DNA from: an uncultured Verrucomicrobiae bacterium
GTDB lineage: Bacteria > Verrucomicrobiota > Verrucomicrobiia > Chthoniobacterales > UBA10450
Assembly (NCBI GenBank): GCA_963735805.1
Contig: CAVTMK010000001.1
Location: 128,001-192,000, forward strand
Reading direction: 5' to 3'
DNA length: 64,000 bases
Below are positions 4,892 to 63,809 of this stretch, piece by piece. Position 1 is the first letter of the stretch; every line of letters starts with the position of its first letter. The translations under genes were made by a program, and so were the position numbers. Below the pieces are notes generated by a model, which saw only the letters and a program-made list of their open reading frames with translations, did no database searches and was not told where the DNA came from.

Positions 4892-4975
4892 GCCGGCGTG
4901 GCGGAATTGGCAGACGCGCTGGACTCAAAATCCAGTGATCGCAAGGTCGTGTGGGTTCGAGCCCCTCCGCCGGCA
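4892..4975 (+). tRNA. tRNA-Leu(CAA), CCA not encoded
   Basis: Acceptor stem GCCGGCG/CGCCGGC, anticodon arm CTGGA-CTCAAAA-TCCAG, variable arm, GGTTCGAGCCC. Confidence 0.96.
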
Positions 4976-21524: not shown

Positions 21525-23765
21525 GTGCGAAATTCTTCGAGTCATCAATCTCGTTTTGCCAAAGCTCGCCGCGGGACGAGTTGGTGTCGCCGAAGCGAGT
21601 GGACTTTCGAAGCCCGATGCGTCCTCGCATCGGTTGCTCTCTCCGGGATCGGCCTCATCCAAATAGCATCACAAACTGAAGCGCGCGCCGACAAGGAGGC
21701 ATTTGCGGTTTCTGCCGTTGTCCTTGCCGATCATTCCGTAAACCAGTGTGTGCCAACTCAAGCATTAGGCGCGGGCGTGGACGGTCATGAGAAAGGTGAA
21801 TGCGCGCAGATGTTCACGGATAAGAACATCGCCGAGATGCGATCGGCTGGATTCGGTCCGCTGACGTATCGATTGCGCACCGAACTTGCCGGCGAAGTCT
21901 GGCATTGGAACCCGCGAGGCACCTGGAGTGATCCGGTTCGTCAGTGTGGATACTGGACCTCGGACGATTCGCTCGGCGAACCGATTAACCTTTCCTACGG
22001 CTATCGTTTGCCGCGACGCGGAAATACCATCGATCAGGCAAATGATGACGGTTATTCACGGATCGCTGACGGCGACGAAAAATCTTTTTGGAAAAGCAAT
22101 CCTTATCTCGATTCGTATTTTACCGATGAACCTGAAAATGCTCATCCGCAATGGGTGGTGATCGATCTGGGCGCGATGAAACCGGTTAACTCCGTTCGAA
22201 TTCATTGGGGCGCCCAGTACGCCGAGCAATTCAGAGTGGAATACTGGAGCGGAAACGATCCGATGCATTTGCACGCCGACCAGAAAGACGATTGGCGTCC
22301 TTTTCCAAGTGGAAAAGTGAACCGCGGATCAGGCGGTTATGAATCTGTCCGGCTCTGTTCAAAAGCAGTTCCCGCTCGTTTCGTGCGCGTTGTGATGAAT
22401 CGGAGTTCGCAAACAAGCGTACAAACGTCCAATGATATTCGCGACCGGCTGGGATTTGCGATTCGCGAGATCGAGCTCGGAAAGAGCGACACCCACAATC
22501 GTTTTGATGATTACGTCCGTCACGCGCCCGACCGGTCTCAACAGACAGTGATCTACGTGTCGTCGACCGATCCCTGGCATCGGGCCGAGGACATCGATTA
22601 CAAAATCGAGCAACCGGGGCTCGATTTCATCTTGCGCAGCGCGCTTACGAACGCTTTGCCCGTTCTTGTGCCTGTTGGCGTCTTGTATGATACGCCGGAA
22701 AATGCTGCTGCCGAGATCAGTTATCTGTTAAAAGAAAAGTATCCCCTCGAAGGCATCGAATTAGGCGAAGAACCTGATGGCCAGTGGGCGTCGCCCGAGG
22801 ATTATGGTGCGCTTTATGCCGGTATCGCGCGCCGCCTCTCCATGCTCAGTCCGCTTTTGAAACTCGGAGGACCAAGTCTGCAGAGTTTCGACGAAGAACT
22901 TCTCACGTGGCCCGACGCAGCAGGCAACCGCTCGTGGATGAATCGATTTCTCAAATACGTTCGCACCACCGGCGTACCTTTCGATTTTTGTTCCTTCGAA
23001 TTCTATCCCTTCGACAACATCTGCGCCGATGCAGCGCCACAGCTATTGGAAACTCCAAAGCGTCTCGGCAGAATGATGACTAGCCTGCGAGCAGATGGGG
23101 TTTCTACGGGAATTCCATGGCTAATGACAGAATACGGCTACTCTGTTTTTGCCGGACGCCACGAGGTAGATATCCAGGGCGCTCTCTTCGGCGCAGACAC
23201 GGTGGGAACATTTCTAACACTCGGCGGGTCCAAGCCTTACTTATACGGATACGAGCCAAACTACCTCCAGGACGAGCTGAAGTGTTCCTGGGGCAATCTG
23301 ATGATGCTCCAACTCAACCCAGGCAGCGATCAACTTAATCGGCTATCGGGCTACCATGCTGCCAAACTGATCGCGCGAGAATGGATGCAACCAACAAATG
23401 AGACACATAAGATATTCCCTGTAGCTATAACACAGCAGAAGCCGACGTTATCGCGGATTGTCACTGTCTATGCGGTACGACGACCAGACAAACAATGGGC
23501 TTTGCTGGCGATTAACAAGGATCCCGACCGCGCAGCGCGACTTGTTGTGCAGTTTAGGCTTCCTGGTACACAGCGAGAGGACAGCTTTGTTGGCGACGTG
23601 GATGTTATCCAGTTCTCCCGCGAGCAATACGTGTGGCACGACAATGGACCAAACGGATACCCTAGCCCTACTCTTCCGCCCGCGCACTTCACCCAAAAAG
23701 CGTCTTCATTCTACGATCTGCCACCGTATTCGCTCACTGTCTTGCGCGGAAGGCTTCTGGATTGA
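21525..23765 (+). CDS. Discoidin (F5/8 type C) domain-containing putative glycoside hydrolase
   Basis: [10 protein letters not shown]...QWVVIDLG...ARFVRV; clan-A-like ELGEEPD and MTEYG; start uncertain. Confidence 0.75.
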
Positions 23766-23848
23766 CGGCGCGGCACCGCGCGCGTGCCTAGCTTGTTGGT
23801 CGATGCTTTCACGGCTTTCGCCGCAAAGCCTGCCTCGATGTTGAACGT

Positions 23849-24742: not shown

Positions 24743-24868
24743 CGTTGTGTTTTCGCGTTCGATTTCTGACGGGACCTCGCTGAGGTTCGGGGGACTTTGA
24801 AGACCAAGGTGCACCCGGCTCGCGTAGTTGCAACAAAGTGCCGAACCCTAGGTAGGTCGCCCGAAGGG

Positions 24869-25963: not shown

Positions 25964-25990
25964 GCCTACTCTCTCAGAACATATATCACG

Positions 25991-26007
25991 CCAGCGCCTG
26001 ATTAGGC
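25991..26007 (-). repeat. attC remnant (inverse-core end only)
   Basis: Minus strand GCCTAAT-CAGGC-GCTGG, containing the RidA stop codon. Confidence 0.45.
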
Positions 26008-26400
26008 ATTCTGTTCATCATCAAGTATGGCATCAGCTTCGAACTCGACTAACCAATCGGGATCAATAAACCTTGTTACCTGCATAACTGTGTTCGCGGG
26101 TCGAATCTCGCCAAAGAACTCGCCATGAACTGCGGCGACTGCCTCCCAGTCCTCGATCCTCACAAGCAGCGTGCGAGTGCGAATCACCTGAGCCAGCGAA
26201 ACGCCAGCCTTTTCCAATGCGGAAGCAATGATCTCAAGGCATCGCCTCGCCTGCAGCGCGGGATCCCCGACGCCGATGGTGCGCCCATCCGGACCAAGCG
26301 GAGCGGTCCCGGAGACCGCAATAACGTTTCCGACCCGCACAGCTCGTGAGATGCCAACCTTCGGCTCGTATGGGCTACCGCTGGAGATGAGTTTGCGCAT
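26002..26400 (-). CDS. RidA/YjgF family protein (cassette)
   Basis: SRAVRVGNVIAVSGT, IRPANT, DWLVEFEADA. Confidence 0.9.
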   Translation of the reverse strand: MRKLISSGSPYEPKVGISRAVRVGNVIAVSGTAPLGPDGRTIGVGDPALQARRCLEIIASALEKAGVSLAQVIRTRTLLVRIEDWEAVAAVHGEFFGEIRPANTVMQVTRFIDPDWLVEFEADAILDDEQNA

Positions 26401-26422
26401 GATTATATAGACAACCGATTAC

Positions 26423-26574
26423 CTCTAACGAAAAAGAGACAAGTCATACCTAGCGTTTTAATAAAGCCAGCCGGAACGGGTGGAGTATAAGTGGGAAACC
26501 GAAGATCGAATGAGCCTGATGGGTGAGTCACGTTGCATCGTAATGGCGCTTTCGGTCTCGTCGTATGGTTAACG
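26423..26574 (-). repeat. attC site, degenerate
   Basis: Minus CGTTAAC-CATAC...ACTTGTC-TCTTTTTC-GTTAGAG. Confidence 0.6.
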
Positions 26575-27047
26575 CGCGCCCATGTCATGAATTCGACCCG
26601 AAAACGAGAGAATGCAAAGTAAGGCGAAGGCTGTGACAAAGACCCCGTGAAAGCTCACGTGCAACGTGTCCGGTCGAATGCCGTTGCGGGCTGGAAGGAA
26701 TGCGTGTGTTTGTGCGAACCGGACTCGGTAACGCTCAGTGCGCAGCGGGTCTTTTACAAAAAGATAAGGAACCCACAAGTTCGGAGCACGCCGTATAGGC
26801 CAGTACCGTAACTCAGCCACAGCAACCACAGTAACCAAGCCGGAAAGTGAGCTTTAACATAGTAAACGCTCGCAGCAAATGCGACTGCAAATGGCAGCGT
26901 ACTGAGCGTTGTGACAAAAAGGAGCTTTCCCGTCGTGTCCGCTGCGCGAATGCCTTCGAGATTGTTTAACTTACCGAGAGGGATCCAGTCATGCAGCGCG
27001 ATGAAGAGCACGACAAGCAGTTGACACACAAGAAAGGCGTAAATCAT
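26569..27047 (-). pseudogene. Frameshifted membrane-protein cassette gene
   Basis: Two overlapping ORFs join (GVLRT-W-WVPYLF) if one G is restored near 26776; stop lies in the attC inverse core. Confidence 0.7.
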
Positions 27048-27053
27048 CGAGCG

Positions 27054-27158
27054 CCCTAATGAGAGCGAGATAAGGCCCCTGACCACTTGAGGCAAGAGAT
27101 TGGCTTTGTTCGCCAGCCTAACGAAAGCCCCCGAGCCGGGTTCATCAACTGGTTAGAC
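27054..27158 (-). repeat. attC site, core mutated to ATT
   Basis: Minus GTCTAAC-CAGTT-GATGAACC...CCTTATC-TCGCTCTC-ATTAGGG. Confidence 0.75.
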
Positions 27159-27290
27159 CTACTCGTGTGGCCTGGGTCAGTGTCATCGCAACCCGGCTCC
27201 TGGAATTCTTTACGCCACTGGGCGTGACGATCACCACAGGTCGCTTTCAATCCGTAAGGCGGCTCAATCGATCTGGGGACGATCACTGCA

Positions 27291-27869
27291 CTAATCATTC
27301 AATCCCTTTCCACTAAGAATCTCCTGCATACATTTTTCAACCCTTAACTCCCGGGTTTTGGACTGTTTGGCTCCAGAAAAATAAAGAATGTATCCTCTTT
27401 GCCTTCCCGGCGTCAGTGCATCAAAAGCAGTTTTCAAGGCAGGCACTTCATCTAGTTTATTTTGAAATTCCTCAGGAATAGGTTCCGGATTCCTTTTGTA
27501 ATTTACCTTTAAACCGGCCTTTTCCACTTCAATGGCTTCATAGATATAGGCTTTCAAGATGGGTTCTTTCTCAGTTATTTCTCGCACATCGGTGAACGGA
27601 ATCCGCCGTGCCGCCTGCCAGCCAAATTTTCTAAGGATACTATTGCGATCATTTAACAAGGCACCTTTGCAAAACAGAAGAGCGCAGAATTCTTTAAATC
27701 CCTGTATTATAACTATGTTACTTTTCTGAAACGTGTAACAAGGTTTACCCCACTTCAATTCTTCGGTCAGCCCACAGTCAAGACTGATCCTTCTCAATGT
27801 CTTCATTTCGTTCTGCCACTTTTTGGTTTTTCTTAAATATTCATCAACCTGAGGATTCATTTTATTCAT
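27291..27869 (-). CDS. YdeI/OmpD-associated (DUF1801) family protein
   Basis: LTEELKWGKPCY, FDALTPGRQRGYILYFSGAKQSKTR. Confidence 0.9.
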   Translation of the reverse strand: MNKMNPQVDEYLRKTKKWQNEMKTLRRISLDCGLTEELKWGKPCYTFQKSNIVIIQGFKEFCALLFCKGALLNDRNSILRKFGWQAARRIPFTDVREITEKEPILKAYIYEAIEVEKAGLKVNYKRNPEPIPEEFQNKLDEVPALKTAFDALTPGRQRGYILYFSGAKQSKTRELRVEKCMQEILSGKGLND

Positions 27870-27927
27870 TTGTTGATAGACTGAAATAAAGTAAGCCTCG
27901 ATTAGGCAATCTAAAAATCGTGAAGTT

Positions 27928-29751
27928 TCACCGCGTCGCGTTCTTCTTCGCCGTGATCGGCGCGAGTGAAGCAACAATTTCTTCAAAGCGCGGATCGCCT
28001 CGCAGCGGATCCCAAAACGGATCCAGACGTATTTCGCCATAGGAGACGCCTGCGGGAAGTCTTGCCAGTGTTTGCAATTGCTGGATCGCCTCATCGCGTT
28101 CTCCCGTCCACGCACAGATCACCGAATAAAAATAAAGGACTTCTGTGCCGTTGAGGGCATCTTTGGTTGCAGGGAGAAGCTCCACTGCCCTGCGACCTTC
28201 CCGAAGCGCTTCTTCGTTCCGCCCAAGCGATGCATCTATTAAGCCCAGGAAACAGAGCTTCGAAGCGTCATCAGGCGCTTTGCGTACTGCCTCTTCCTGC
28301 TCTGCGCGCGCGCCGCTAAAGGCTGCGGACGCGCCGGCTGCGTCTCCCTTCATTCGAGCGACTAACCCTTTAGCGTAAGCCGGGCTAAATTTGACCGTGC
28401 CGATTCCCCTGGCATTCATCACCGGATAATCCAGCGTGGCGAGAGCGCGCTCGGCGGCCACCGGGTCGCGTTCGTACAGACTCACAAAGAAGCGCGCGCG
28501 CGTCAGATCTCTCGCCGAGGCAGGATTCTCAGCGAGAATCTTTTCGAGAACCGCATGCCATGGACGGGTATCGGCCTGTTCATGGAAGTCGATCCAGACC
28601 GGCAGCAACCGCGCATAATTGTTCCTTGTCGGGAGCGCAAGGCCGCGATTAGCAATCTCTCTGGCTCGTTTATACTCGCGCGCGCAAAGATAGGTGAACC
28701 CCGTCCCGAAAAGGATATCATCATTTCGGGGATCCAACTCCACTGCACGTTCGAGGTTATGAAGGGCATCGTCCCAGCGACCCTGTCTTCGATCGATATA
28801 TCCGTTCAGCTCAAAGATTCGCGCATTGTTTGGCAAAGTGCGTACTGCGACGGTGAGCTCGTCCCGGGCGCGCTCGTAATCGAGGTAACCGTAGTAAAAG
28901 TGCAGGGCGGCGGCGAAATGTGCCTCGCCCGAATCCGGGTTTAATTGCAAAGCGGAATTTACTGCCGACTTGGCTAATTCAAGACGGCCCGGCGAGTGAT
29001 CGAGCGCATTCCAGTAGATCCCGTCGTGGGCTCTGGCCAACTGGCAGTATGCCAGAAGAAAAGTCGGATCCCGCGCGATTGCCTGATTGAGTAACTCGAC
29101 AGCTTTGAAAAGATTCGTCTCGCTGCTGAGGCCGTAATAGAGGGACTCTTCAATCAAAGGGACGGCGTGGACATAAAGGTCGTAAGCAACAAGATCTTTG
29201 GTGGGGTGTTCTTGCATCGCTGTTGTTTCGTAAGCTGAAACCTTGACTCCAAGCCGATTCGCGACCGCTTCCGCCACCTCCGCCTCAATCGCGAACACTT
29301 CATTCAAATCGCGATCGTATTCCCCTGCCCAGACGTGTGTGCCGGTGCGAGCATTCACGAGACGCGCATTGACGTGCACCTTGCCGCCGTAACGCCGCAC
29401 AGTGCCATCCAGCAGGTTTAAAACGCCCAGCGCCCTCCCAACCTGGCGCGGATCCTGATTACCACGGTAATGCATGACGCTGGTGTGGCTGATGACCTTG
29501 AGCTCGGAAATTCTTGCCAGCTTGGTCAAAATGTCGTCCTGCACGCCATCGGCAAAAAATGCGTCGTCGTTGTTATAGCTCAGGTTTTCAAACGGCAAGA
29601 CGGCGATGCTCTTCTCCTTTTTTGCAGCACTTGAGACTGATCCGGCGATTGCCGAATGCTTGCGCAGTGATGGGAAAAGGAAAAACGCCGTGGCGCCGAC
29701 AACCAGGATAGCAACTGCCAGAGCGACAATGGCACGACGCTCTTTACTCAT
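27928..29751 (-). CDS. Membrane-anchored TolB-like/TPR protein
   Basis: N-terminal TM, EKSIAVLPFENLS, TPR repeats, LDPFWDPLRGDPRF end. Confidence 0.85.
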   Translation of the reverse strand: MSKERRAIVALAVAILVVGATAFFLFPSLRKHSAIAGSVSSAAKKEKSIAVLPFENLSYNNDDAFFADGVQDDILTKLARISELKVISHTSVMHYRGNQDPRQVGRALGVLNLLDGTVRRYGGKVHVNARLVNARTGTHVWAGEYDRDLNEVFAIEAEVAEAVANRLGVKVSAYETTAMQEHPTKDLVAYDLYVHAVPLIEESLYYGLSSETNLFKAVELLNQAIARDPTFLLAYCQLARAHDGIYWNALDHSPGRLELAKSAVNSALQLNPDSGEAHFAAALHFYYGYLDYERARDELTVAVRTLPNNARIFELNGYIDRRQGRWDDALHNLERAVELDPRNDDILFGTGFTYLCAREYKRAREIANRGLALPTRNNYARLLPVWIDFHEQADTRPWHAVLEKILAENPASARDLTRARFFVSLYERDPVAAERALATLDYPVMNARGIGTVKFSPAYAKGLVARMKGDAAGASAAFSGARAEQEEAVRKAPDDASKLCFLGLIDASLGRNEEALREGRRAVELLPATKDALNGTEVLYFYSVICAWTGERDEAIQQLQTLARLPAGVSYGEIRLDPFWDPLRGDPRFEEIVASLAPITAKKNATR

Positions 29752-29810
29752 TTACTTGTCTCTCAGCTCACACGGTTCCTGGACATAAACATCCCTTCGA
29801 CAACCCGAAA

Positions 29811-29933
29811 GCCTGACGAGAACAAGATGAACTGAGGCGAGCGAAGGCGCGCGTGGCTACGGGTCCCTGGGTTGGACGCATGTGAAGCTGGATATTACGC
29901 CGGCTCGCGGTCGGCTCCATTGCATGCTTAGGC
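29811..29933 (-). repeat. attC site, both cores mutated
   Basis: Minus GCCTAAG-CATGC-AATGGAGC...GTTCATC-TTGTTCTC-GTCAGGC. Confidence 0.75.
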
Positions 29934-29940
29934 GCTGGCA

Positions 29941-30339
29941 TCAACGCAATGCGCTCCCTTTTTTCCATGCACTGCGCACAAACCAAAGCGTGCCGACTGT
30001 TCCGGAAAGGAGAAAGGCGAATGTTCCCATGCCAATAATGAGAGAGACAACATTCGGCACAGGCCATGGTTCAAAGCCGCGTGCCCGCAGAAGGTTTTTG
30101 TAGTGAAAGGCCTGGTACGCCGCGCTGGCAAACCTGACAAAAAGAATCACCGAGGCGAAGGCATAAAGACCGGAGACTAAGCGATACAGCGCACGATCAA
30201 AGCGCCGTTCAGCTACGTAGGTGGCGATGAGCACCGCGAAGGTCAAGGTAATCCAAATTTGAAAAATGGAATCGGTCAGAGCGAGCGTCGCGTAAAGTGT
30301 GCTGTAAATTGCTTCCTGAGATATTGGAGTCGCGGGCAT
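29941..30339 (-). CDS. Small membrane protein (cassette)
   Basis: 132 aa, about three TM helices, bounded by attC sites. Confidence 0.75.
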   Translation of the reverse strand: MPATPISQEAIYSTLYATLALTDSIFQIWITLTFAVLIATYVAERRFDRALYRLVSGLYAFASVILFVRFASAAYQAFHYKNLLRARGFEPWPVPNVVSLIIGMGTFAFLLSGTVGTLWFVRSAWKKGSALR

Positions 30340-30346
30340 ACGGCAG

Positions 30347-30470
30347 GCCTAACGGGATGGAACTGAGCCACCTCTCACGAGAGCGAGCGCGGGAAATATC
30401 GAAAACTGTTTCATAAGATCAAACGTGGACTTCACGACGGACAGCGGTTGGCTTCAGCGACTGGTTAGGC
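30347..30470 (-). repeat. attC site, intact cores
   Basis: Minus GCCTAAC-CAGTC-GCTGAAGC...GCTCAGT-TCCATCCC-GTTAGGC. Confidence 0.88.
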
Positions 30471-30761
30471 CGATGAGGTGGTGTTATCATGTGGCTGCGA
30501 TGGAACTCCGCGTCGTCGAGAGCGAAGACACTCGCAGATGAACAACAACACCGCGAGCAAAAAGCCGATGACGGCGATGGCGCTGAAAATCATTGTGGCG
30601 TGGAAGGCTGCGAAAACCCACGCTGCTTGCGGCGAGAACTTCGAGTGCTCACCCGGTAGCTGACTCGCTCCGATCAAGCGATACTCGATGAAGACAAGTA
30701 CTCCGTAGGTGACTGCATAAGCGGCCAGCACCACAACGACCGCGTGCCGGAAACCCTTCAT
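30465..30761 (-). CDS. Small membrane protein (cassette)
   Basis: ATG 2 nt after core GTTAGAC; TAA inside GCCTAAC. Confidence 0.75.
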   Translation of the reverse strand: MKGFRHAVVVVLAAYAVTYGVLVFIEYRLIGASQLPGEHSKFSPQAAWVFAAFHATMIFSAIAVIGFLLAVLLFICECLRSRRRGVPSQPHDNTTSSA

Positions 30762-30763
30762 CC

Positions 30764-30793
30764 GTCTAACGAGAATCGAGCAGATTTCATGAG
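30764..30793 (-). repeat. attC core end followed by the start of a mini-insert; rest of the site missing
   Basis: Plus GTCTAAC-GAGAA-TCGAGCAGATT, the same junction as at 32348. Confidence 0.6.
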
Positions 30794-30862
30794 CTTCCGG
30801 TCAGTCTCCACCATCCACGCCCTGCTGTTCCGTGAAATCATCTCCAAGCCCCTGGCGTAACC

Positions 30863-31735
30863 CTAGGGAGGTCGCGGTGTGCGAGTAGGCTGCGGTGTTA
30901 AAGTTGGCACTGGCGTAGACGTTGGCGTAACAGTAGGTGAAGGTGCGGATGTGGACGAGGGGGTGGCACTCGGCGTAGGGCTACCGGCCGGAGTAGGACT
31001 AATAGTAACTATCGGAGGTGTTTCCTCCGCTCCCTCATTTCGTTCTTTTTTATAAGTGATAAGAAGCGTGGCACCCGCCACTGGAGGGATCTTTGCTTCA
31101 GCCGGACCTGCAATGACTACCTGGTTACCCACTTCCGGGAAATTTTGCGAATTAATGCCAGTGCTGGAATCGATTCGAGTCGCGGTAAGAACATTCGCGA
31201 TCACCCCAGTATTACCACCCAGGGGCACACGGACGACGCCGTGGTCGGTGCCTCCTTCTTGAGTAAAATTTATGATGTTGAGGAAGCGATCTTCAGGGAC
31301 TGGGATGTTGAGCTGCGAAGTTGTAACGATCTTGCTTTTGAATTCTCCGTCGTTTGGTTCTTTTTTGTAAGTGATAAGAAGCGTGGCACCCGCTACCGGA
31401 AGGGCCTCCGCTTGAGCCGGACCTGCAATGACCACCTGATTAGCGATTTCCGGTAAATTTTGCGAATTAATGCCCGTGCTAAAGTCGATTCGAGTCGCGC
31501 TAAGAACATTCGTGGTGCCGCCGGCATCGCCACTCAGAGTGACACGGACGACGCCGCGGTCGGTACCCCCTTCCTGAGTAAAATTTATGATCTTAAGGAA
31601 GCGATCTTCAGGGACTGGGATTGTAAGCGGTGAAGTTGTAATGACCCTGGTCTTGAATCCTGCCGCAAAAATAAAGCCAGTATTCAGGAGAAAGAAGGCA
31701 GTCAACCAACGGCTGAGATACATTTTCTTCGTCAT
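30863..31735 (-). CDS. Secreted protein with two tandem 105-aa domains and a Pro/Thr tail
   Basis: Signal peptide; internal duplication with 315-bp period. Confidence 0.8.
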   Translation of the reverse strand: MTKKMYLSRWLTAFFLLNTGFIFAAGFKTRVITTSPLTIPVPEDRFLKIINFTQEGGTDRGVVRVTLSGDAGGTTNVLSATRIDFSTGINSQNLPEIANQVVIAGPAQAEALPVAGATLLITYKKEPNDGEFKSKIVTTSQLNIPVPEDRFLNIINFTQEGGTDHGVVRVPLGGNTGVIANVLTATRIDSSTGINSQNFPEVGNQVVIAGPAEAKIPPVAGATLLITYKKERNEGAEETPPIVTISPTPAGSPTPSATPSSTSAPSPTVTPTSTPVPTLTPQPTRTPRPP

Positions 31736-31832
31736 ATACCTGGACACCGCACAAGCAAATTAGAATCGATCGTCGTCACGTCAATGGGACTGTAACCAGA
31801 GGCCAGCAGAAAAATCAGTGAGCGGTGCATAC

Positions 31833-31958
31833 ATCTAACGAGACAGAGCTCAGCCACCGCTCCCGGAGCGAGGTTGCGCCCAATTGAGAATACAGTAATC
31901 AGGATCGGGATCGACACGCAACGCCAAAGAGCGGTCGACTGGGTGCGATTAGTCAGGG
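31833..31958 (-). repeat. attC site, inverse core mutated
   Basis: Minus CCCTGAC...GGTG-GCTGAGC-TCTGTCTC-GTTAGAT. Confidence 0.75.
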
Positions 31959-32342
31959 CTCGCACTTAAATTCTCTGAACAGGCCCACATATTCGTACTG
32001 ATTGATAAGCTGGATTTCTTCGATGCAACCAAGCCGTCCTGCATGAGTGAGCTTTCGGTAAGTCCCTGATAGATTTTCGAACTCCTCGTCTAATTCAGGT
32101 GAAACCTTAAACCGAGCGGACGCACTTTCAGACTTTAGAGTAATGTCCAGCTCATAGGTGACGCCTTTGTTCTCGACGTCCAAAAGAGTGCCTTTTAAAT
32201 GTTCACCGCTACGTGTTAACGAACCCTGTGCTTGCTGGGTATGCCACGCATAGTCACTCGTAACCCAAATCAGCTTCCAGTCCTCGGCTCTTAGAGATCC
32301 AGCAAAGGACAATACCAATACGAGCGTGTATATTTTTTTCAT
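31953..32342 (-). CDS. Secreted hypothetical protein (cassette)
   Basis: MKKIYTLVLVLSFAGSLRA signal peptide; start just after GTTAGGG; stop in CCCTGAC. Confidence 0.75.
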   Translation of the reverse strand: MKKIYTLVLVLSFAGSLRAEDWKLIWVTSDYAWHTQQAQGSLTRSGEHLKGTLLDVENKGVTYELDITLKSESASARFKVSPELDEEFENLSGTYRKLTHAGRLGCIEEIQLINQYEYVGLFREFKCEP

Positions 32343-32359
32343 GCAAGCCCTAACGGGAA

Positions 32360-32433
32360 TCGAGCAGATTGGGAATCTGCGAGATGGACGGGATAGCGCG
32401 GGAGGCGAATGAGTTGGGAAGATCATGAGTCAA
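32360..32433 (+). mobile_element. 74-bp non-coding insert in the attC spacer
   Basis: TCGAGCAG...GAGTCAA; removal restores CCCTAAC-GGGAAAGA-GATAAGC-CAC. Confidence 0.65.
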
Positions 32434-32504
32434 AGAGATAAGCCACGGGTTGGGTCGGGCAATACGCTGAGCTTATTTCGGAATCGGGTCAACTTGCTTG
32501 CGAA

Positions 32505-32657
32505 TGGAGCCGCGGGACGGCAGCGACATACCTGGGCAAACCGAGAGGTCGAATAGAGCTTAACGGGGAAAGCGACATAGAAGTTAAAGCTGCGAGGGAA
32601 GAAGCGAGCGCGTTGGGAAAGGAGCGAGTTTCAAATGAGCGGGAGCGAATGAGTCAA
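32505..32657 (+). mobile_element. 153-bp non-coding insert in the attC variable region
   Basis: TGGAGCC...AGCGACATA (x2)...GAGCGGGAGCGAATGAGTCAA. Confidence 0.6.
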
Positions 32658-32733
32658 GGCTTTCGGAGTAGGCTTCATCGATTGGTTAGACCGAAGGGCA
32701 TATGGCTCCGGTCGCGAACTCTTGGTTGAGACG

Positions 32734-33222
32734 TCAGGGTTCCTTCAAGTCCACGTTATGATAAGACACTATGCTCCATTCGCCTTTGTCTTTTACGAAC
32801 ACCTCTTGCAGTCGCGTGCGAATTTTGCCATCGGCCATGCTCTTTACGCCAGGCGGCGTCCTTTGAATCCCGCTCAATTCTGTAGAGATATCGACGATTG
32901 CTACGGCAGGCCGAACGAAACGAATCTTGCTCACCGACATCGCCAGTTTACTCCCTTTGAAAATCGTTTTGAAGATTTCGGCGTGCCGATCTTCGAAGGC
33001 TCGATGGCCATAAAATACCGTTCCACGAATGTTGGTAAAGCTCCCGTCTTCAGCGAACCTCTGCGAAAAAGCCTTTGCATCGCCCACGTTCCACGCCGCA
33101 ACTTCCTCGGCGACGATCTGACGAAGGCGCGATTCATCGTCGGATGATTGCGCTGCGACAGGTAGCCCAGTGGCAATGATTAGTAAATGCGCTGAGAGGA
33201 TGCTTACTAGTTTTCTTTTCAT
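32734..33222 (-). CDS. SgcJ/EcaC-like (NTF2/DUF4440) protein (cassette)
   Basis: AWNVGDAKAFSQRFAEDGSFTNIRG...WSIVSYHN. Confidence 0.88.
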   Translation of the reverse strand: MKRKLVSILSAHLLIIATGLPVAAQSSDDESRLRQIVAEEVAAWNVGDAKAFSQRFAEDGSFTNIRGTVFYGHRAFEDRHAEIFKTIFKGSKLAMSVSKIRFVRPAVAIVDISTELSGIQRTPPGVKSMADGKIRTRLQEVFVKDKGEWSIVSYHNVDLKEP

Positions 33223-33237
33223 ACCGTGAGAATTGAG

Positions 33238-33417
33238 GTCTAACGAGAAAGAGATAAGCCACAGCTAGCGTTGAACAGCAATACGACGGGAGTGCGCGAG
33301 TTCGAAGGGACGAATCGCACTAGGGAACCCGGGCACCTGGGTGAAATCCAGGGTGCCGTGGCAAGCTTGCTCGCGCTCACTCCGTCAGGGGCTGTTGGCT
33401 TCATCGACTGGTTAGGC
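33238..33417 (-). repeat. attC site, intact (180 bp)
   Basis: Minus GCCTAAC-CAGTC-GATGAAGC-CAACAGC...GCTGTG-GCTTATC-TCTTTCTC-GTTAGAC. Confidence 0.9.
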
Positions 33418-33418
33418 G

Positions 33419-33730
33419 TCAGCGACTCCATCGTTTGCTTGATGACAAATAGGCGCATATGAGACACACCACTGCAGTGCTGATCAAAAGGGTAGCCAAC
33501 ACAACCCCCAGGTCTCCGTCCCAAGCCCTGACAAAGAGAGTTGGAACCGCCACAATGGTGAGCGTAAGCAACATTACGGGAATAGCGCTCGGGCGGGCAA
33601 AATTGATCGTCCAACCCATCCACTTTAAACGCTTCGGCACAATTACCCGCGGATCGGCCTTGCAATAATAGACGCCCCACTTCCGATTCTCCGGGTCTTT
33701 CCAATAAGCTTCGAGTTCTTCGCGTGTCAT
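33419..33730 (-). CDS. DUF5808-like membrane protein (cassette)
   Basis: WGVYYCKADPRVIVPKR...GWTINFA. Confidence 0.82.
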   Translation of the reverse strand: MTREELEAYWKDPENRKWGVYYCKADPRVIVPKRLKWMGWTINFARPSAIPVMLLTLTIVAVPTLFVRAWDGDLGVVLATLLISTAVVCLICAYLSSSKRWSR

Positions 33731-33747
33731 AATATATCCCCGCTCAC

Positions 33748-33876
33748 GTCTAACGAGACGCAAGATCAGTGACCGTGAGGCCGGCAAAACGTAACTTGCA
33801 GCGTAAGGGTAGATGGTAAACACAAACAACGTAGATCGAAACGCCGTTCGCGGTCCGCTGCATCGCGTGGTTAGAT
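33748..33876 (-). repeat. attC site, intact cores
   Basis: Minus ATCTAAC-CACGC-GATGCAGC-GGACCGCG...CACGGTC-ACTGATC-TTGCGTCTC-GTTAGAC. Confidence 0.88.
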
Positions 33877-33897
33877 GTTTTCGCTGTGGTCACTTCG

Positions 33898-34743
33898 TTA
33901 TTTCACGTCGAGGGGCTTTCGCGTCCATGCACCAAATTGAATTGGCCCCAGGATTTGACTTCCGGCAGCTACCACTTCGTCTTCTAAGCGTCTTGCGAGT
34001 GTCTTATCAGCGGTGACCCCTTTAGGTAGCGCAAGTCCCATTTGCTCGAGGCGCGGAGTGACACTAATCAGCGTATTCGCTATCCAGCGATACAGATATG
34101 AATCGTGCCCGCCGCCGGCGACCGATTCGGCAAGAACGGTGGGAAATGGCAAGCCGGCGTCGAGAAATGCCCCGGCCACGCGGCGACCGTAATCAGGTGG
34201 ATTTCCCGAACGGCGGAACGCTTCGCTGAGTAGTCCGTAAATCTCGTCCCAAAACGCGCACTGAGGGTCGCTCGAGTGAGTGTTGGCAAAATCCATTTCG
34301 TGGAACACAACAATGCCGCGAGGTTTCAAAAATTTCAGCAGACGACGGATGATGGCTCCGGGATCTTGCTGGTAAAGTAAAATGTAACGGCCGACGATTG
34401 CGTCGAACTGATCTGCGGCGTCGAACTCAGCAAGGTTGCTGGCCTCGAAGGTAACCCAGGAAGAACAGCCCTGTTTACGACTGCGCTCGCGCGCCTTCTC
34501 CAGTCCCGCGGCATCCTGGTCAACTCCCAGCACCCACCCTCCTGGTCCGACGATCTCGCCTGCCAGGAACGCTACGTCACCCATTCCTGAGCCAATCTCG
34601 AGGACGCGCATTCCTGGGCTAACTCCGGCAAATCGGAAAAACTTGTCTGTGAACGGGCGAATTATCTTGGCCTGAAATGTCAACCGTTCATATTCATACT
34701 CCGATTGACCCAGAATGTAATTGCCTTCGGTTTTCGAAGCCAT
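33898..34743 (-). CDS. Class I SAM-dependent methyltransferase (cassette)
   Basis: MRVLEIGSGMGD, FDAIVGR, LKPRG. Confidence 0.9.
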   Translation of the reverse strand: MASKTEGNYILGQSEYEYERLTFQAKIIRPFTDKFFRFAGVSPGMRVLEIGSGMGDVAFLAGEIVGPGGWVLGVDQDAAGLEKARERSRKQGCSSWVTFEASNLAEFDAADQFDAIVGRYILLYQQDPGAIIRRLLKFLKPRGIVVFHEMDFANTHSSDPQCAFWDEIYGLLSEAFRRSGNPPDYGRRVAGAFLDAGLPFPTVLAESVAGGGHDSYLYRWIANTLISVTPRLEQMGLALPKGVTADKTLARRLEDEVVAAGSQILGPIQFGAWTRKPLDVK

Positions 34744-34834
34744 CCGACTCTTCAGCTTATTCAGTTAGAGCGCCATCGTCAGCCGTTAAATTAGGGAATG
34801 ACCTTCGAGTCTTAGGTCGAATTCTGTCGAGACC

Positions 34835-34958
34835 ATCTAAGAAGACGGAGTTGAGCCACCGCTGGCAGCGGCGAGCGTGGCGAATTCTCTAAACGGTTTC
34901 GTAAAATCAAATCTGCGCACCAGGACCGCCGGCGGTTGGCTCGAGCGATTTGTTAGAC
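34835..34958 (-). repeat. attC site, core mutated to CTT
   Basis: Minus GTCTAAC-AAATC-GCTCGAGC-CAACCGC...GCGGTG-GCTCAAC-TCCGTCTT-CTTAGAT. Confidence 0.82.
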
Positions 34959-35254
34959 GCGTTCGCGGCATCGCCTTGAAGCTATCTTTCGATCGGGAGT
35001 CGCGAACTCGACAGCCTCAATGTCCAGACTGCGCTTGTAGTCATGTTCTGTGGAAATACCAATCGCAATGTCCTTCGGCGAATTCTTTGTAAAACGCTCC
35101 ATCTCTGCGTCAGCAGCGTCTTTCGCCCGGAAGACGATTGCTTTCGCGGTGATGAGCCATCGCCGCTGACTGCGGTGGCACCTTTTGGTGTCGCCGCAGT
35201 CACGTTGAACGCCAACGCAACGAACGCCGATAGGGCAATGCAGCGCGCTAGCAT
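34953..35254 (-). pseudogene. Probably frameshifted small secreted-protein cassette gene
   Basis: ATG overlaps core GTTAGATG; an alternate frame after GDGSSP runs open (KAIVFRAKD...) to the TAA in GTCTAAC. Confidence 0.55.
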
Positions 35255-35290
35255 CTAACGAGACAGAGATAAGCCACGCCTAGGGTTGAA
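35253..35290 (-). repeat. Truncated attC (L'-R' half) at the array start
   Basis: Minus GTG-GCTTATC-TCTGTCTC-GTTAGAT; no other half before the SDR stop. Confidence 0.75.
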
Positions 35291-35301
35291 CACAACATAG
35301 A

Positions 35302-36051
35302 TCACATCATCAAGTCGCCGCCGTTGATGTCGAGGGACGTGCCGGTAATGTAGCCAGCGGCTTCGGAGGCGGCGAAGCAAATCAAATCGGCGACTTCGAC
35401 CGCGGTGCCAAGGCGCGGCACGGGATAACTCGCGGCGAGACGTTCGAGCAACTCGTTCGGGGCATGTTCGCGCGTCAGCTCGGTATCGATCATACCGGGG
35501 CAGATGGCGTTCACTGTGATACCGAACTTGCCGAGCTCCTTCGCGGCGGCACGCGTCAGTCCGAGGAGTCCAGCCTTCGATGCCGTGTAGTGCGCACCAC
35601 CGAGCGTGCTCACCATCCGGCCGGCCGAAGATGAGATATTAATGATGCGGCCATAGTGCTGGGCCCGCATTGCCGGAAGAACGGTTTTCGTCATCAAGAA
35701 TGGCGCGGTAAGGTTGACCTCAATCACTTTGCGCCATTCCTCGGCGGTGAGATCGGGAAAGCGTGTCGACAGCGGAAGCGCGGCGTTGTTGACGAGGATG
35801 TCGATTCGTCCGAAGCGTTCGAGCGTGCGGCGCACAATCTCGTCGGGGACGCCGTCCGCCGCGACGTCGCCTGGCACGGCGAAGGCGCGCTCGCCGATTT
35901 CCTTCGCCAGCGCCTCGGCGCGCTCGCGGTTGCGGAGGTTCACCGCGACCGAGGCACCACGCTCGTGCAGGCGCGCTGCGGCAGCCCGTCCGAGGCCGCG
36001 CCACGCACCGGTGACGACGGCGACGCGCCCAGCAAAATCAGCGTTTTCCAT
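35302..36051 (-). CDS. SDR family oxidoreductase (FabG-like)
   Basis: VTGAWRGLG, DILVNNA, YTASK, NAICPG. Confidence 0.92.
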   Translation of the reverse strand: MENADFAGRVAVVTGAWRGLGRAAAARLHERGASVAVNLRNRERAEALAKEIGERAFAVPGDVAADGVPDEIVRRTLERFGRIDILVNNAALPLSTRFPDLTAEEWRKVIEVNLTAPFLMTKTVLPAMRAQHYGRIINISSSAGRMVSTLGGAHYTASKAGLLGLTRAAAKELGKFGITVNAICPGMIDTELTREHAPNELLERLAASYPVPRLGTAVEVADLICFAASEAAGYITGTSLDINGGDLMM

Positions 36052-36070
36052 CCGGAGAATTGTCTCCAGG

Positions 36071-39000
36071 CTAGGCTCGCACCGGCACGCTGGCGGTGCG
36101 CTCGAGTTTGCCCCAGCTTACCCAAGCGCCTTTGATTGCGCGCAGGATCGCTTTCCAGATGCAGTAACTAAGCATTGGTCGGTAAATCAGACGCATCGGT
36201 AGAATGCGCCAGGCGCGTGTGATCGGTTCGCGTTCCAGGATGCAGGCGAGCGTGGCGAGTAACACGTCCATCGCAAGAAAGGTGATGACGAATGGCAGTA
36301 CCGCGTTCCAAGCACCGAACGGGAGAGACGCGAGAAGGAACAGATCTACCATCGGGGTGATGGCTATGAGGATGATTTGGAAAAACCAAATACTGGGCAA
36401 ACTGAACCAGCCAAGCGCTCGATAGTTCCAGTTGAACACCATGTCGCGATGTTTCCAGAGGGATTGCAGCGTGCCGTAAGCCCAGCGGAACCGTTGTCGG
36501 GCAAGGGTACGCACGCTCTCGGGCGCTTCTGTCCAGGCGATGGCATCGGGCACATAAACGATCCGCTGTCGATGTCTGTGCAACGCGAGAGTGAGATCGG
36601 TGTCTTCGGCAAGGGTCTGCAAACTCAGTCCACCGGCTGCATCAATCGCATTTTTGCGGACCGCGCTAATCGCACCAGGCACGACGGTGATGCAATTCCA
36701 GCGGTTGTAAGCGCGCCGATCCAGATTAAAACCGCAGGTGTATTCCAATGCCTGACAGCGCGCGATGAATGTGCGCAGGTTCCCGACTTTCGCATGACCT
36801 GATACTGCGCCGATACGCGCGTCGGCGAATGGCTCGACCAGATATGGGAGCGTATCGCGCTGACATTGTGTGTCGGCATCGATAAAAACAATGATGCCGT
36901 GACGCGCGGCGGCGAGACCGCGCTGGAGAGCGCGGGCCTTCCCGCGATTTTCCTGTTGTAACAAGCGAACACGCGCCTCGTTCTTTGCAACGCGCTCAAC
37001 TTCCGCGGCGGTTTGGTCGCGCGACCCGTCATCCACAACGACGACTTCAATTTCGCCTCTGTAGTCCGTAGCCAGAAGCGTGCGCAGAGTTTCCGCAATT
37101 ACTTTGCCTTCGTTGTAGGCAGCGATCACCACACTGATCGGTTCCGAAAAATCTTTTCGTGGTTCCCGTCGAAAACGATAAGCGAGCCAGATGACTATCA
37201 GGGTGCGAACGACCACGAGTGCCGTTGCCACAATCATGAACGCCCAGAGGAATTCTTCGAAGCTATGGTAAACTCGAAATCCGGTTCTGCTCACCAGGCG
37301 CGTGAGAGATTGTCCATTGTTTTGCACCACCGGCATGATCGCGTCGCGGGTCGTGCCCAGTAGCGTGCTCACCGCCACCACGGTGTCGCCGCGCGTATGC
37401 AGCCAATCCAAAATGCGCGGAAGCGCTTCCACCGTCTGCGAGCGGTCGCCGCCCGCGTCATGCAGCAAAATGATGCTGCCATCGCGTCGTTGTTGTTTCA
37501 CACGCTGGACGATGATGTCCGCCCCTGGCTTCGCCCAGTCCTGTGGATCGATACTCTCCAGAACGACGAGATAATTGAGGTCTTCCGCGATTTTCAGCGG
37601 AGTCAGATCGGTCAGTTGGGTCGGACTCGAATCCGCAGCATAAGGCGGCCGGAACAACGTGGTGGCGCGACCCGTTATCGTTTCCAGTAGAAGCTGTGTT
37701 GCATTCAGTTCCAGCCGGATGTGCTCGGGCCAGCATAGGGCCAAGTTAGGATGATAATAAGTGTGGTTCCCAATCTCGTGTCCTTCATCAACAATACGCC
37801 GAACAAGCCCCGGGTAACGTTCCGCGTTCACGCCCACGAGGAAAAATGTGGCTTTGACGTTTGCTGCTTTGAGGATGTCTAAGATCTGCGGCGTCCATCG
37901 CGGATCCGGGCCGTCGTCGAAAGTGATTGCCACCTGATGCTCGCCTGCGGCGCCCTGATGATACAGCGTCGGGAATTCCGCAAACTTCGTGTATTTCGCC
38001 GTGAGGTAGCCATCAGTGTCCACGGCAAGTTTTCGCAATCCATCGGTGCGTTCCTCGTCAACAGTTACAATCTCACCGTCGCCGACGTCGGTAATTGTGT
38101 CGGTCGATTTTATCAATTCCAGTGCTTGTCGCGCTTGATTATCGAGTTTGAAATCCCGCGGAACACTTAAGGCATCCCAAATCGCAGGGTCTTCGCTGCC
38201 CAGCCGATAAAGTGCAAAGCCGCCGGCTTTTTTGTCGCGCACAGTGCGCAGTTGGTTGAGGAACGTCACTGCATCCAAAAACCAGACAGCGTGCTCCTTG
38301 CCTTCATCCTCGAAATAAAAATACGGGCTGTAGCTTGGTCCTCGTACTTCTGCGCTCTCGATTTCCGCATCGTTCGCGCGGCTCATCGCTTCTGAAAAAC
38401 TGATCATCTCGGCCTTTTTTCCGCCGATCGTCCAATCATACCCGTAACCACCCATTGCGAAGATCCATTGCTTGGTATCGGCATCTTCCAGCAAGACATT
38501 CACCCAGCCTTCAAACCAGGAGCGCGACGCCAGCGGTCCCGGCGGGTCGGTGTCGGATGTTTCGTCAAACAACATCGCTACAAAACGATCGACGTTGTCG
38601 GAGAGCGCATCGAAATCGATGTAATCCAATTCCTGGCCCGGTTGAACGCACAACCAAAGCTCCTTGTTATCGTCGTGTAATACATCGGCAAACTTGTCGA
38701 TGAACGCGGTGATGTCCTTTTTGTAAGCAGGATCGATTTGTTCCCAATCAACCACGACGCCTGCGGCTTTCGCATTGCGCAAAACAGCAAGCACCCGTTG
38801 GATAAACCGGTCCTGTCGTTGTGCCGGCCCGTGCGCAAGGTTCTCAATCGCTTCAGGCTGCCAGGTATCGCCTACGAGGTTCGTCAGCAGGGGCATCAGC
38901 GCGATGCCCTTGCTTGCGGTCAGTTTCAATAGCCGAGTGTCTCCGTCGATTTGTAAATCGCCCAAGCCATTGATTACCGTCATCCATTCGGGGCAGAGAT

Positions 39001-39421
39001 GTGTAATCTGCGCCGCGTGTTGCTCGAATGAAGCGTAGCTGTACGGATCGCCGTTCACATAGAATGCAAGGCGCACTTCGTTACTGGGCGCTTTCTTCCG
39101 CGGCCGCGCGGTGGGCGCGGCGCCGGTAAGCTTTCTTGCGGCTTGCCGCGCTGCGGAAAATTTCTGCCACAGCAGCGAACTCGGAGACAATTGCTCGGCC
39201 GGATTCTGTTTTTGCAACGCCTTCAACTGGCCTTTCAACTGTCGCAGAGAAAACGGCACATTCATTTTCGGCGCGACGAAAAGCGTCTGGACGAACACCA
39301 CCGTCGCCAGGAAAAACAGGATGCCGGCAATAAGCACCGTTAAGCGCAGGCGCGGCCAGCGCTTCCCAGTCGGATCCGAGAAAACAAACGGTGTGACTTC
39401 TTCTGGAGGGGTCCCCTGCAT
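36071..39421 (-). CDS. GH18-like + polysaccharide deacetylase + GT2 fusion protein
   Basis: TFDDGPD, HEIGNHT, FRPPY, LLHD; AYNE, VDDGS, DADT, AEDTD, QRFRW. Confidence 0.92.
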   Translation of the reverse strand: MQGTPPEEVTPFVFSDPTGKRWPRLRLTVLIAGILFFLATVVFVQTLFVAPKMNVPFSLRQLKGQLKALQKQNPAEQLSPSSLLWQKFSAARQAARKLTGAAPTARPRKKAPSNEVRLAFYVNGDPYSYASFEQHAAQITHLCPEWMTVINGLGDLQIDGDTRLLKLTASKGIALMPLLTNLVGDTWQPEAIENLAHGPAQRQDRFIQRVLAVLRNAKAAGVVVDWEQIDPAYKKDITAFIDKFADVLHDDNKELWLCVQPGQELDYIDFDALSDNVDRFVAMLFDETSDTDPPGPLASRSWFEGWVNVLLEDADTKQWIFAMGGYGYDWTIGGKKAEMISFSEAMSRANDAEIESAEVRGPSYSPYFYFEDEGKEHAVWFLDAVTFLNQLRTVRDKKAGGFALYRLGSEDPAIWDALSVPRDFKLDNQARQALELIKSTDTITDVGDGEIVTVDEERTDGLRKLAVDTDGYLTAKYTKFAEFPTLYHQGAAGEHQVAITFDDGPDPRWTPQILDILKAANVKATFFLVGVNAERYPGLVRRIVDEGHEIGNHTYYHPNLALCWPEHIRLELNATQLLLETITGRATTLFRPPYAADSSPTQLTDLTPLKIAEDLNYLVVLESIDPQDWAKPGADIIVQRVKQQRRDGSIILLHDAGGDRSQTVEALPRILDWLHTRGDTVVAVSTLLGTTRDAIMPVVQNNGQSLTRLVSRTGFRVYHSFEEFLWAFMIVATALVVVRTLIVIWLAYRFRREPRKDFSEPISVVIAAYNEGKVIAETLRTLLATDYRGEIEVVVVDDGSRDQTAAEVERVAKNEARVRLLQQENRGKARALQRGLAAARHGIIVFIDADTQCQRDTLPYLVEPFADARIGAVSGHAKVGNLRTFIARCQALEYTCGFNLDRRAYNRWNCITVVPGAISAVRKNAIDAAGGLSLQTLAEDTDLTLALHRHRQRIVYVPDAIAWTEAPESVRTLARQRFRWAYGTLQSLWKHRDMVFNWNYRALGWFSLPSIWFFQIILIAITPMVDLFLLASLPFGAWNAVLPFVITFLAMDVLLATLACILEREPITRAWRILPMRLIYRPMLSYCIWKAILRAIKGAWVSWGKLERTASVPVRA

Positions 39422-39481
39422 GTGGTGCTTACAATCGCTCAGGCGCAAAAATAAGGAAATCCGATTCTGTCATTCGAAGTT

Positions 39482-63650: not shown

Positions 63651-63668
63651 TAAAAACTCCTTCCGATC

Positions 63669-63729: not shown

Positions 63730-63809
63730 TTGTAACAGGTTAGCGTATGTTTGCAGCAACTCAAGGAAGATGGGGTCGCCCCCGCCAGCGCTGTGTTAGC
63801 CGCCACGCC

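Follow-up and report, generated by a model that had tools for sequence, protein, structure and literature searches.

An array of integron cassettes without a nearby integrase gene at a conserved locus of a Candidatus Udaeobacter genome

The 64-kb window analyzed here, positions 128,001 to 192,000 of the forward strand of contig CAVTMK010000001.1 (assembly GCA_963735805.1), comes from a genome of Candidatus Udaeobacter, an uncultured and globally abundant soil genus with a small genome. On its minus strand, between positions 25991 and 35290, lie about eleven co-oriented integron cassettes that encode mostly small proteins. By those criteria of Cury et al. (2016, NAR 44:4539, PMC4889954) that were tested, this array is a cluster of attC sites lacking integron-integrases (CALIN), a term used in that paper for at least two attC sites without an intI gene nearby, with mostly unknown cassettes. 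It is likely the remnant of a chromosomal integron whose integrase gene was deleted or moved, and whose cassettes would now be mobilized only by the IntI protein encoded on another contig of the same genome. The genome under study (G000) is a metagenome-assembled genome of four contigs (C1 to C4), of which the 422-kb contig C1 holds the window; coordinates without a prefix are window positions, G handles denote related genomes, and L handles denote public loci of relatives.

Genes and attC sites of the array

The conserved upstream flank of the array is a gene for a 1125-aa protein to which Pfam assigns GH18, polysaccharide deacetylase and GT2 domains (36071..39448; the GT gene hereafter). Like all features described below, with the exception of the downstream flank, it lies on the minus strand. 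Nineteen nt after its stop codon, the variable block opens with a short-chain dehydrogenase (SDR) gene (35302..36051; Pfam adh_short_C2, 1.2e-62). Directly after the SDR stop codon lies the 3' half of an attC site (35253..35293), made up of the L' box GGCTTATC, a spacer and the R' sequence GTTAGAT, and here cassette 1 begins. Bit scores given for attC sites refer to R1, a covariance model of the R''-L''...L'-R' hairpin that was built from nine window sites and run over the whole 64 kb with filters off; its match at this half site (35253-35413, 24.8 bits) extends into the SDR gene.

The reading frame of cassette 1 (34982..35254) comprises 90 aa as assembled, with a hydrophobic N-terminus, and is followed by attC A (34835..34958; GTCTAAC...CTTAGAT; 124 nt, 107.0 bits). 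Cassette 2 (33898..34743) encodes a 281-aa class I S-adenosylmethionine (SAM) methyltransferase (Pfam Methyltransf_31, 8.6e-20) and precedes attC B (33748..33876; 129 nt, 80.3 bits), whose R and L boxes are paired in the minimum-energy fold. A 103-aa DUF5808 membrane protein (cassette 3, 33419..33730; Pfam 1.9e-11), attC C (33238..33417; 180 nt, 90.0 bits) and a 162-aa SnoaL-like/DUF4440 protein with a signal-like N-terminus (cassette 4, 32734..33222) come next. The following site, attC D (32348..32691), is 344 nt long; alignments identify a canonical 5' arm and L' box. The site is interrupted by two small insertions without coding capacity, for which reason R1 recognizes no more than its 5' half (11 bits). 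Cassette 5 (31953..32342) codes for a 129-aa protein with a signal-like N-terminus and without an assigned family, and ends at attC E (31833..31958; 84.4 bits), which has a degenerate inverse core. Cassette 6 (30863..31747) encodes a 294-aa protein with a Pro/Thr/Ser-rich tail, and its gene contains an internal 317-nt tandem duplication (31030-31346 versus 31345-31661, 83% identity). Behind it, attC F (30764..30868; 36.1 bits) combines a degenerate 5' half with a variant 3' arm that ends in AATCTGCTCGATTCTCGTTAGAC.

Cassette 7 (30465..30761; 98 aa, two hydrophobic segments) has its stop codon inside the inverse core of attC G (30347..30470; 124 nt, 107.8 bits), and cassette 8 (29941..30339; 132 aa, three hydrophobic segments) is followed by attC H (29811..29933; GCCTAAG...GTCAGGC; 88.0 bits), in which both cores are degenerate. 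Two genes make up cassette 9 (27291..29751), with no R1 match between them; according to Pfam, one (27928-29751) encodes a TPR protein of 607 aa, which has a membrane anchor at its N-terminus, and the other (27291-27869) a DUF1801/YdeI protein of 192 aa. The N-terminal domain of this TPR protein (29237-29616) has at least ten diverged paralogues spread over C1-C4, at 64-76% nt identity. After attC I (27054..27158; GTCTAAC...ATTAGGG; 105 nt, 53.8 bits) comes cassette 10 (26569..27047), a membrane protein that is split over two frames as assembled (26754-27047 and 26569-26838) and whose stop codon lies inside the inverse core of attC J (26423..26574; 152 nt, 72.9 bits). Cassette 11 (26002..26400) encodes a 132-aa RidA/YjgF protein (Pfam 1.4e-22); its stop codon lies inside a lone inverse core (26001-26007), the remainder of that attC site being missing. 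Two genes without a recognizable attC site complete the block, one for a SAM carboxyl methyltransferase (24869-25963) and one for a metallo-beta-lactamase-fold (MBL) protein (23849-24814). The conserved downstream flank is a convergent plus-strand gene of 746 aa (21525..23765).

The first-pass annotation of this DNA, made from the letters and their open reading frames, had described the cassette products as mostly unknown membrane and secreted proteins. This agrees with the absence of a Pfam family in six of the 13 cassette reading frames and with a strongly hydrophobic 19-residue segment in eight of the 13; the products of cassettes 5 and 6 look secreted and have no family. No antibiotic-resistance family appeared among the Pfam results for the cassette proteins, and PADLOC, run on 16 proteins, reported no defence system and weak domain-level matches for three of them (methyltransferase, RidA and MBL). 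Promoter-like and terminator-like sites occur at the rate of shuffled sequence (nine versus 7.2 and 19 versus 15.7, respectively), so that expression signals cannot be judged from them.

Contigs from public soil sequencing (four runs of one study, which contain 58-82% of the array's sampled words and of which one may stem from the source sample) cover the region and differ from it by single bases. Contigs of three of the four runs have an extra base behind 35141, and those of two runs have one behind 26775. By frame arithmetic, the former makes the frame of cassette 1 stop at 34953-34955, inside the inverse core, and the latter joins the two frames of cassette 10 into one that likewise stops within the inverse core. 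These extra bases point either to assembly indels or to strain-specific frameshifts. Larger differences exist as well: contigs of three of the four runs lack 62 nt at 29964-30027 in cassette 8, and the contig of one run carries 585 extra nt between 34984 and 34985. The array is thus polymorphic in the sampled soils. Public contigs have loose ends at 33238-33240, 33415-33418, 32690, 32349, 35255 and 34845, and one 23-letter joint connects 32689 to 33239. Many of the contigs stop or diverge precisely at attC edges. This pattern fits cassette shuffling among co-occurring strains and equally well breaks induced by repeats, and we therefore do not use it as evidence.

Structure of the attC sites and small inserts within them

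In the window, R1 gave ten matches at E <= 3.6e-5, which without exception lie within 26423-35413 and on the minus strand; the other nine matches listed for the window have E-values of at least 0.4 and scores of at most 11.5 bits. Nine full sites end on the minus strand at a GTTRRRY-like core and have an RYYYAAC-like inverse core 105-344 nt ahead. The last bases of their cores are the very positions at which the first-pass annotation had placed full attC-like sites (26423, 27054, 29811, 30347, 31833, 32348, 33238, 33748 and 34835). The three partial sites of that annotation also lie on the minus strand where it had listed them, as an inverse core alone (26001-26007), a 3' half alone (35253-35293) and a site with a degenerate 5' half (30764-30868), and ten of the twelve sites fit R1. 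It had further noticed that stop codons fall within inverse cores and that start codons follow cores. Such stop codons are found at 30465, 26569 and 26002, and also in the degenerate inverse core at 31953, while start codons are located 0-30 nt after cores in eight cassettes (1, 3, 4, 5, 7, 8, 10 and 11). For a CALIN, at least two co-oriented attC sites with neighbours no more than 4 kb apart are required, and an integron integrase must be absent within 4 kb; the widest gap in this array, from 27158 to 29811, is 2.65 kb.

The pairing expected of an attC hairpin (R'' with R', L'' with L' and the stem beyond; 20 pairs) was scored against a control in which the 3' partners were slid by one to three columns. 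In the nine window sites, 81.5% of the cells hold standard pairs, versus 20.8-41.4% in the slid controls. An independent set of 108 R1 matches (106 distinct), all outside the training sites and taken from the C2 array, other clusters and related genomes, gave 93.2% paired cells versus 24.9-39.6%. Compensatory changes on both sides occur here in 13 of the 20 pairs, and none of 500 shuffles reached any of five measures. The alignment of the independent set was fitted to R1, which favours pairing; the slid controls and the compensatory changes nevertheless argue for a conserved hairpin. Together with the R1 matches, this pairing and covariation bear out the view that the region has integron cassette architecture.

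The 108 independent sites share the top-strand consensus [G/A][T/C]CTAAC - CANNC - G[A/C]T-G-NAGC[C/G]A-A-C[C/G]GC in their 5' part and GC[G/C]GT[G/C]GCTNA[T/G]C - T[T/C]NNTCTC - GTTAG[A/G][C/T] in their 3' part, with a 3' spacer of 8 nt and a 5' spacer of 5 nt, and the lengths of the attC sites cluster at about 96, 108 and 123 nt. Two single-base bulges, six pairs apart, lie on the 5' (R''-L'') arm; in the top strand one is a G (96 of the 108 sites) and the other an A (103 sites). The bottom strand corresponds to the plus strand of the window, and its extrahelical bases are consequently a C inside L'' (96 of 108; G in 11) and a distal T (103 of 108), opposite the AAC. The attC sites are canonical in shape and in orientation, the coding strand being the top strand, and depart from the usual G in the first extrahelical base. 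For the canonical sites of mobile and Vibrio integrons, Nivina et al. (2016, PMC5027507) give G as the usual extrahelical base within L'' and a conserved T as the distal one, opposite the cleaved AAC, and state that IntI1 requires 6 bp of stem between the two. With those sites, the Udaeobacter attC share the RYYYAAC/GTTRRRY ends, the paired L boxes, the unpaired central spacer, the 6-bp bulge spacing and the distal T, whereas they differ in the C within L'', in their unequal spacers and in their length classes.

Rfam has no attC family; its run with gathering thresholds over the window returned two tRNA genes (1740-1820 and 4892-4975, both on the plus strand) and a fluoride riboswitch (63663-63738, minus strand, 40.1 bits) only, and an E-value run over 23500-36200 returned one small RNA match at chance level.

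The two insertions in attC D have copies elsewhere in the genome. One is a non-coding element of about 180 nt at about 32490-32667, just after the L'' stem, without an Rfam match. Copies that are 88-90% identical occupy the same relative attC position in the C2 array (1272425-1272652, 1269903-1270130 and 1264508-1264737); a further copy lies at C2:247424-247667, and shorter pieces are present on C3 and C4. The other is an insert of 74 nt at about 32358-32431, between the L' spacer and R', which closes with a small hairpin (GCAGATT CCC AATCTGC) and, behind it, TCGATTC. Another copy is at C2:1258288-1258388, inside an attC site of the C2 array, and partial copies are found at 30764-30790, C2:1255120-1255144 and C2:1257080-1257127. 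The 3' part of this insert also serves as 3' arm in attC F and in a mini-attC of 57 nt on C2, and the variant 3' arm of attC F is common to attC D and two C2 sites. The 74-nt insert has no similarity to an IS110 element of C1.

Integrase genes and the GT locus across the genus

No tyrosine recombinase had been seen in the window by the first-pass annotation, and this holds for the entire 422-kb C1, on which neither TIGR02249 (E <= 0.001) nor PF00589 (E <= 0.01) has a match. Its description of the array as an orphan is correct for the locus, as the head of the array lacks the intI-attI pair of a complete integron and the window has no similarity to the C2 intI-attI block; it does not apply to the genome, in which contig C2 carries an intact intI together with an attI and an array of the same attC family (C2:1247493-1279182). 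The uninterrupted frame of this intI matches TIGR02249 over positions 1-313 with 470.7 bits, versus a cut-off of 265. It is transcribed away from a minus-strand array of roughly 30 kb, the nearest attC ends 0.7 kb from intI, and an attI-like GTTAGAC lies between them at about C2:1278060-1278066. Homology of the intI-attI block with the loci L026 and L056 ends at this GTTAGAC, and the first cassette differs, which is the outcome predicted by recombination at attI. Similarity of the C2 array to the arrays of relatives continues to about C2:1247493.

Genome-wide, R1 gave 56 matches at E <= 1 among 150 scored of 1084 first-look candidates. Nine belong to the window array, 19 to C2:1258362-1277523, six to C1:336-339 kb, five to C1:20-28 kb, four to C2:1683-1685 kb and three to C2:1067-1069 kb, while ten are isolated. 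The genome carries four further CALINs besides the window array.

The GT gene marks an integron locus across the genus. Its full-length orthologues (76-94% identity) were examined in 80 public loci, kept out of 304 relatives found, in records named Candidatus Udaeobacter or Chthoniobacterales. One of these loci (L028) stands on a contig titled Candidatus Dormiibacterota, with a 92% identical GT gene and a syntenic 746-aa gene; it probably derives from a mis-binned Udaeobacter. In several integron-free loci (for example L044, L050, L035, L076, L087 and L096), the homologue of the 746-aa gene follows the GT stop codon within 17-735 nt. Judged by this gap in the relatives, the variable block in the window spans 23766-36070, or 12.3 kb; the extent of 25991-35290 originally given for the array holds for its cassettes and is too narrow for the block. 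Over the 80 loci, R1 found 73 matches in 18 loci, all of them downstream of the GT gene and on its strand.

In 63 of these loci, the sequence extends 1.5 kb or more past the GT gene; it is shorter in 15, and two lack the 3' end of the gene. A comparison of the locus in relatives had been suggested by the first-pass annotation; it reveals intI or attC in the same gap between the GT and 746-aa genes in 21 of the 63 loci. An intI in one piece is present in six of them and a broken intI or a fragment in eight, four have at least two attC and three have one attC without intI, and the remaining 42 have neither. Among the loci shorter than 1.5 kb, L026 has a full intI and L030 two attC sites. In L026, L053, L056, L049 and others, intI runs convergently with the GT gene and divergently from the array. 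In L018, L040 and L058 it is co-oriented with the array, and its products there are 62-66% identical to C2 IntI; two orientations at one locus suggest two integrase lineages or an inversion. In L050 (G004), an attI-like stretch that resembles the C2 attI (13382-13460) directly follows the GT stop codon without an intI, and the 746-aa gene begins 479 nt after that stop. The locus L020 keeps homologues of the MBL and RidA genes, and R1 with filters off gives no match there; such arrays thus erode within the genus. At the GT locus, all stages are thus represented, with the complete integron at one end and the eroded relic at the other.

Individual genes of the window array have counterparts in this collection. 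At the same locus, cassette 2 is matched in L023 (90% nt identity) and L022 (78%), and the protein of cassette 6 has a copy with 75% aa identity in L019. L040 has a counterpart of cassette 3 (86% nt identity), and L020 one of cassette 11 (87% aa identity), followed by a similarly reduced remnant that resembles an inverse core. The SDR gene occupies the position at which relatives carry intI. It is matched in one of the 80 public loci, at 35% identity; in G018, a 91% identical SDR gene is found about 10.6 kb distal to the intI of the GT locus and is preceded by the 5' half of an attC site. The MBL gene is an attC-flanked cassette in L033, and the SAM carboxyl methyltransferase gene is present in three of the 31 genomes searched, G000 included. 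G003 shares the block of 746-aa, MBL and methyltransferase genes with G000, and the homology ends at 25974. Behind the MBL, SAM methyltransferase and RidA genes, alignment revealed no attC remnant. The SAM carboxyl methyltransferase and MBL genes are likely to be fixed former cassettes.

Origin of the array, rival explanations and significance

The origin of the array is traceable through the congeners that carry intI in the same gap. The C2 IntI protein finds its closest relatives in integrases of the GT locus, those of L026 (90.4% identity) and L056 (89.8%), and is about 80% identical to those of L053, both copies of G018 and G002. Since it is about 90% identical to GT-locus integrases of other species, the window array is likely a remnant of a genus-wide sedentary integron. 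Cassettes of the C2 array recur in GT-locus arrays of at least ten relatives at 80-94% nt identity, and three of them keep their order in the GT-locus array of L033. Beyond the C2 intI lies a core gene of 473 aa, with 88-97% identity among members of the genus. A broken intI and an attC site adjoin this 473-aa gene in G003, which of the searched genomes with a G handle is the closest relative (GT gene 92% identical); in G018 the gene adjoins neither intI.

These relationships lend themselves to the following model. The GT locus would originally have harboured an integron, whose integrase end would have come to adjoin the 473-aa gene in the lineage of G000 and G003. In G000, a deletion would have joined the GT gene to the SDR gene, with the distal cassettes left behind as a CALIN. 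The IntI protein would fold the bottom strand of the sites (the plus strand of the window) and recombine them in trans. Because neither attI nor a cassette promoter (Pc) is present, the first cassettes would rely for their expression on transcripts that read through from the GT and SDR genes, which have the same orientation. No insertion sequence (IS) was seen at the borders of the variable block, where no search with an IS library was made. A second shared locus as an explanation of the C2 integron was rejected, as the C1 integron of G018 is not syntenic with the C2 integron of G000.

A number of observations weigh against this interpretation of the array. All attC calls rest on R1, which was trained on the window's own sites, and the whole-site DNA folding energy of the bottom strand is not below that of shuffled sequences in any of the seven sites folded (z from -0.73 to +1.10). 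The first-pass annotation had suggested folding the bottom strands as a check; no energy signal emerged from it, and only three of the seven sites have their R and L boxes paired in the minimum-energy fold. The energy result is unsurprising, because the central parts of the sites are long and variable, and structural support consequently comes from position-specific pairing and covariation rather than from overall stability. Sites D, F and H, the half site at 35253 and the lone core at 26001 are degenerate or cut, the assembly has frameshifts in two cassettes, and the SDR, SAM carboxyl methyltransferase and MBL genes lie in the variable block without attC; some of the array may thus be inert. 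The public contigs, whose breaks at attC edges are ambiguous, gave no excision product, and the junction of the GT and SDR genes comes from a metagenome assembly. In G018, two intI copies occupy two different loci, both with about 80% identity to the one on C2. Instead of a relocation of the integrase end, the C2 integron may have been acquired independently from a congener.

Some of these points would equally be expected if the array were a fossil, laid down long ago, with sites that decay and are no longer recombined despite an IntI elsewhere in the genome. Five of its twelve sites are degenerate, interrupted or truncated, two of the attC-less genes (those for the SAM carboxyl methyltransferase and the MBL protein) are fixed and syntenic in G003, and L020 documents an array that has kept gene homologues and no site. 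We nevertheless consider a fossil rather unlikely. Eight window sites, at 54-108 bits, score as high as or above those beside the intact C2 intI, which reach at most 82 bits, and the cassette content diverges between G000 and G003 from 25974 onward and differs from that of all congeners examined. An assembly artefact, in which a misjoin at a repeated attC would have separated an array that is contiguous with intI in the organism, is much less probable still. A metagenome-assembled genome of four contigs and public short-read contigs that break at attC edges leave room for such an error, but the GT-SDR junction is not at an attC site, and a public contig of 3218 nt is colinear with the array over 32628-35259 except for the 585-nt insertion. 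Moreover, in the independent assembly of G003, intI likewise adjoins the 473-aa gene, and the 746-aa gene has the methyltransferase and MBL genes as its neighbours.

That the sites might be generic intergenic palindromes of the repetitive extragenic palindromic (REP) type, unrelated to integrons, carries a negligible probability in our view. Repeats scattered through the genome without relation to gene boundaries had been named in the first-pass annotation as an outcome that would speak against integron sites, and R1 does match at ten isolated places. The other 46 of the 56 matches, however, form six co-oriented clusters, one of which abuts intI. In the 80 related loci, all matches share a single side and strand relative to the GT gene and neighbour intI if it is present, and the sites possess RYYYAAC/GTTRRRY ends and two bulges of the attC type. 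REP-like palindromes are therefore excluded by the clustering, by the placement at the 80 loci and by the 500 shuffles.

The reading of the window array as a remnant of a chromosomal integron can be widened to the genus, and here we are more tentative; this broader proposal has a little less than an even chance of being right. Udaeobacter would possess a sedentary integron at a fixed locus with an attC class of its own (C for G in the first extrahelical base). Its integrase would repeatedly have been lost, flipped or relocated, and the leftover arrays, the window array among them, would still function as a reservoir of cassettes, acted on in trans, and be colonized by tiny non-coding elements specific to attC.

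The array fits the published ideas on the origin of CALINs and the pattern of the Xanthomonas integron, and its attC variant is a modest one. About half of the CALINs occur in genomes that encode IntI elsewhere, integrase loss or splitting of an integron by rearrangement has been proposed as their origin, and Verrucomicrobia are named among the integron-bearing phyla (PMC4889954). The window array shares with CALINs the possession of two or more attC sites, the lack of a nearby intI, the mostly unknown cassettes and an IntI elsewhere in the genome. With 10-12 sites, it belongs to the large tail of the size distribution, as 6.6% of CALINs have more than ten sites; its origin is traceable by comparison, whereas 95% of the CALINs studied had no recognizable intI pseudogene nearby (PMC4889954).

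In Xanthomonas, the integron at ilvD is genus-wide and resides at one fixed locus (Gillings et al., 2005, as described in Microb Genom 2025, PMC12444791). Its intI is often broken by stop codons, frameshifts and deletions; in some species intI is found at another locus, with attC-less former cassette genes at the old one, and CALINs occur at further conserved loci (PMC12444791). Udaeobacter resembles this system in the fixed locus, the decay of intI, a probably relocated intI with attC-less genes left behind and the presence of further CALINs. It differs in the phylum, in the flanking gene and in the occurrence of intI in both orientations at its locus, and integron features are present in 21 of 63 loci, versus 93% of the Xanthomonas genomes (PMC12444791). 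Our literature search, judged by titles and the beginnings of abstracts, found no paper on integrons of Udaeobacter.

CALINs are common and their origin is usually untraceable; in the present case, the comparison of congeners shows how a fixed-locus integron is likely to have turned, by way of broken integrases, into an array without integrase in an uncultured and abundant soil genus. The attC family described here is a ready model for finding Udaeobacter cassettes in soil metagenomes, and its unusual first extrahelical base constitutes a small natural test of what IntI needs for the choice of strand.

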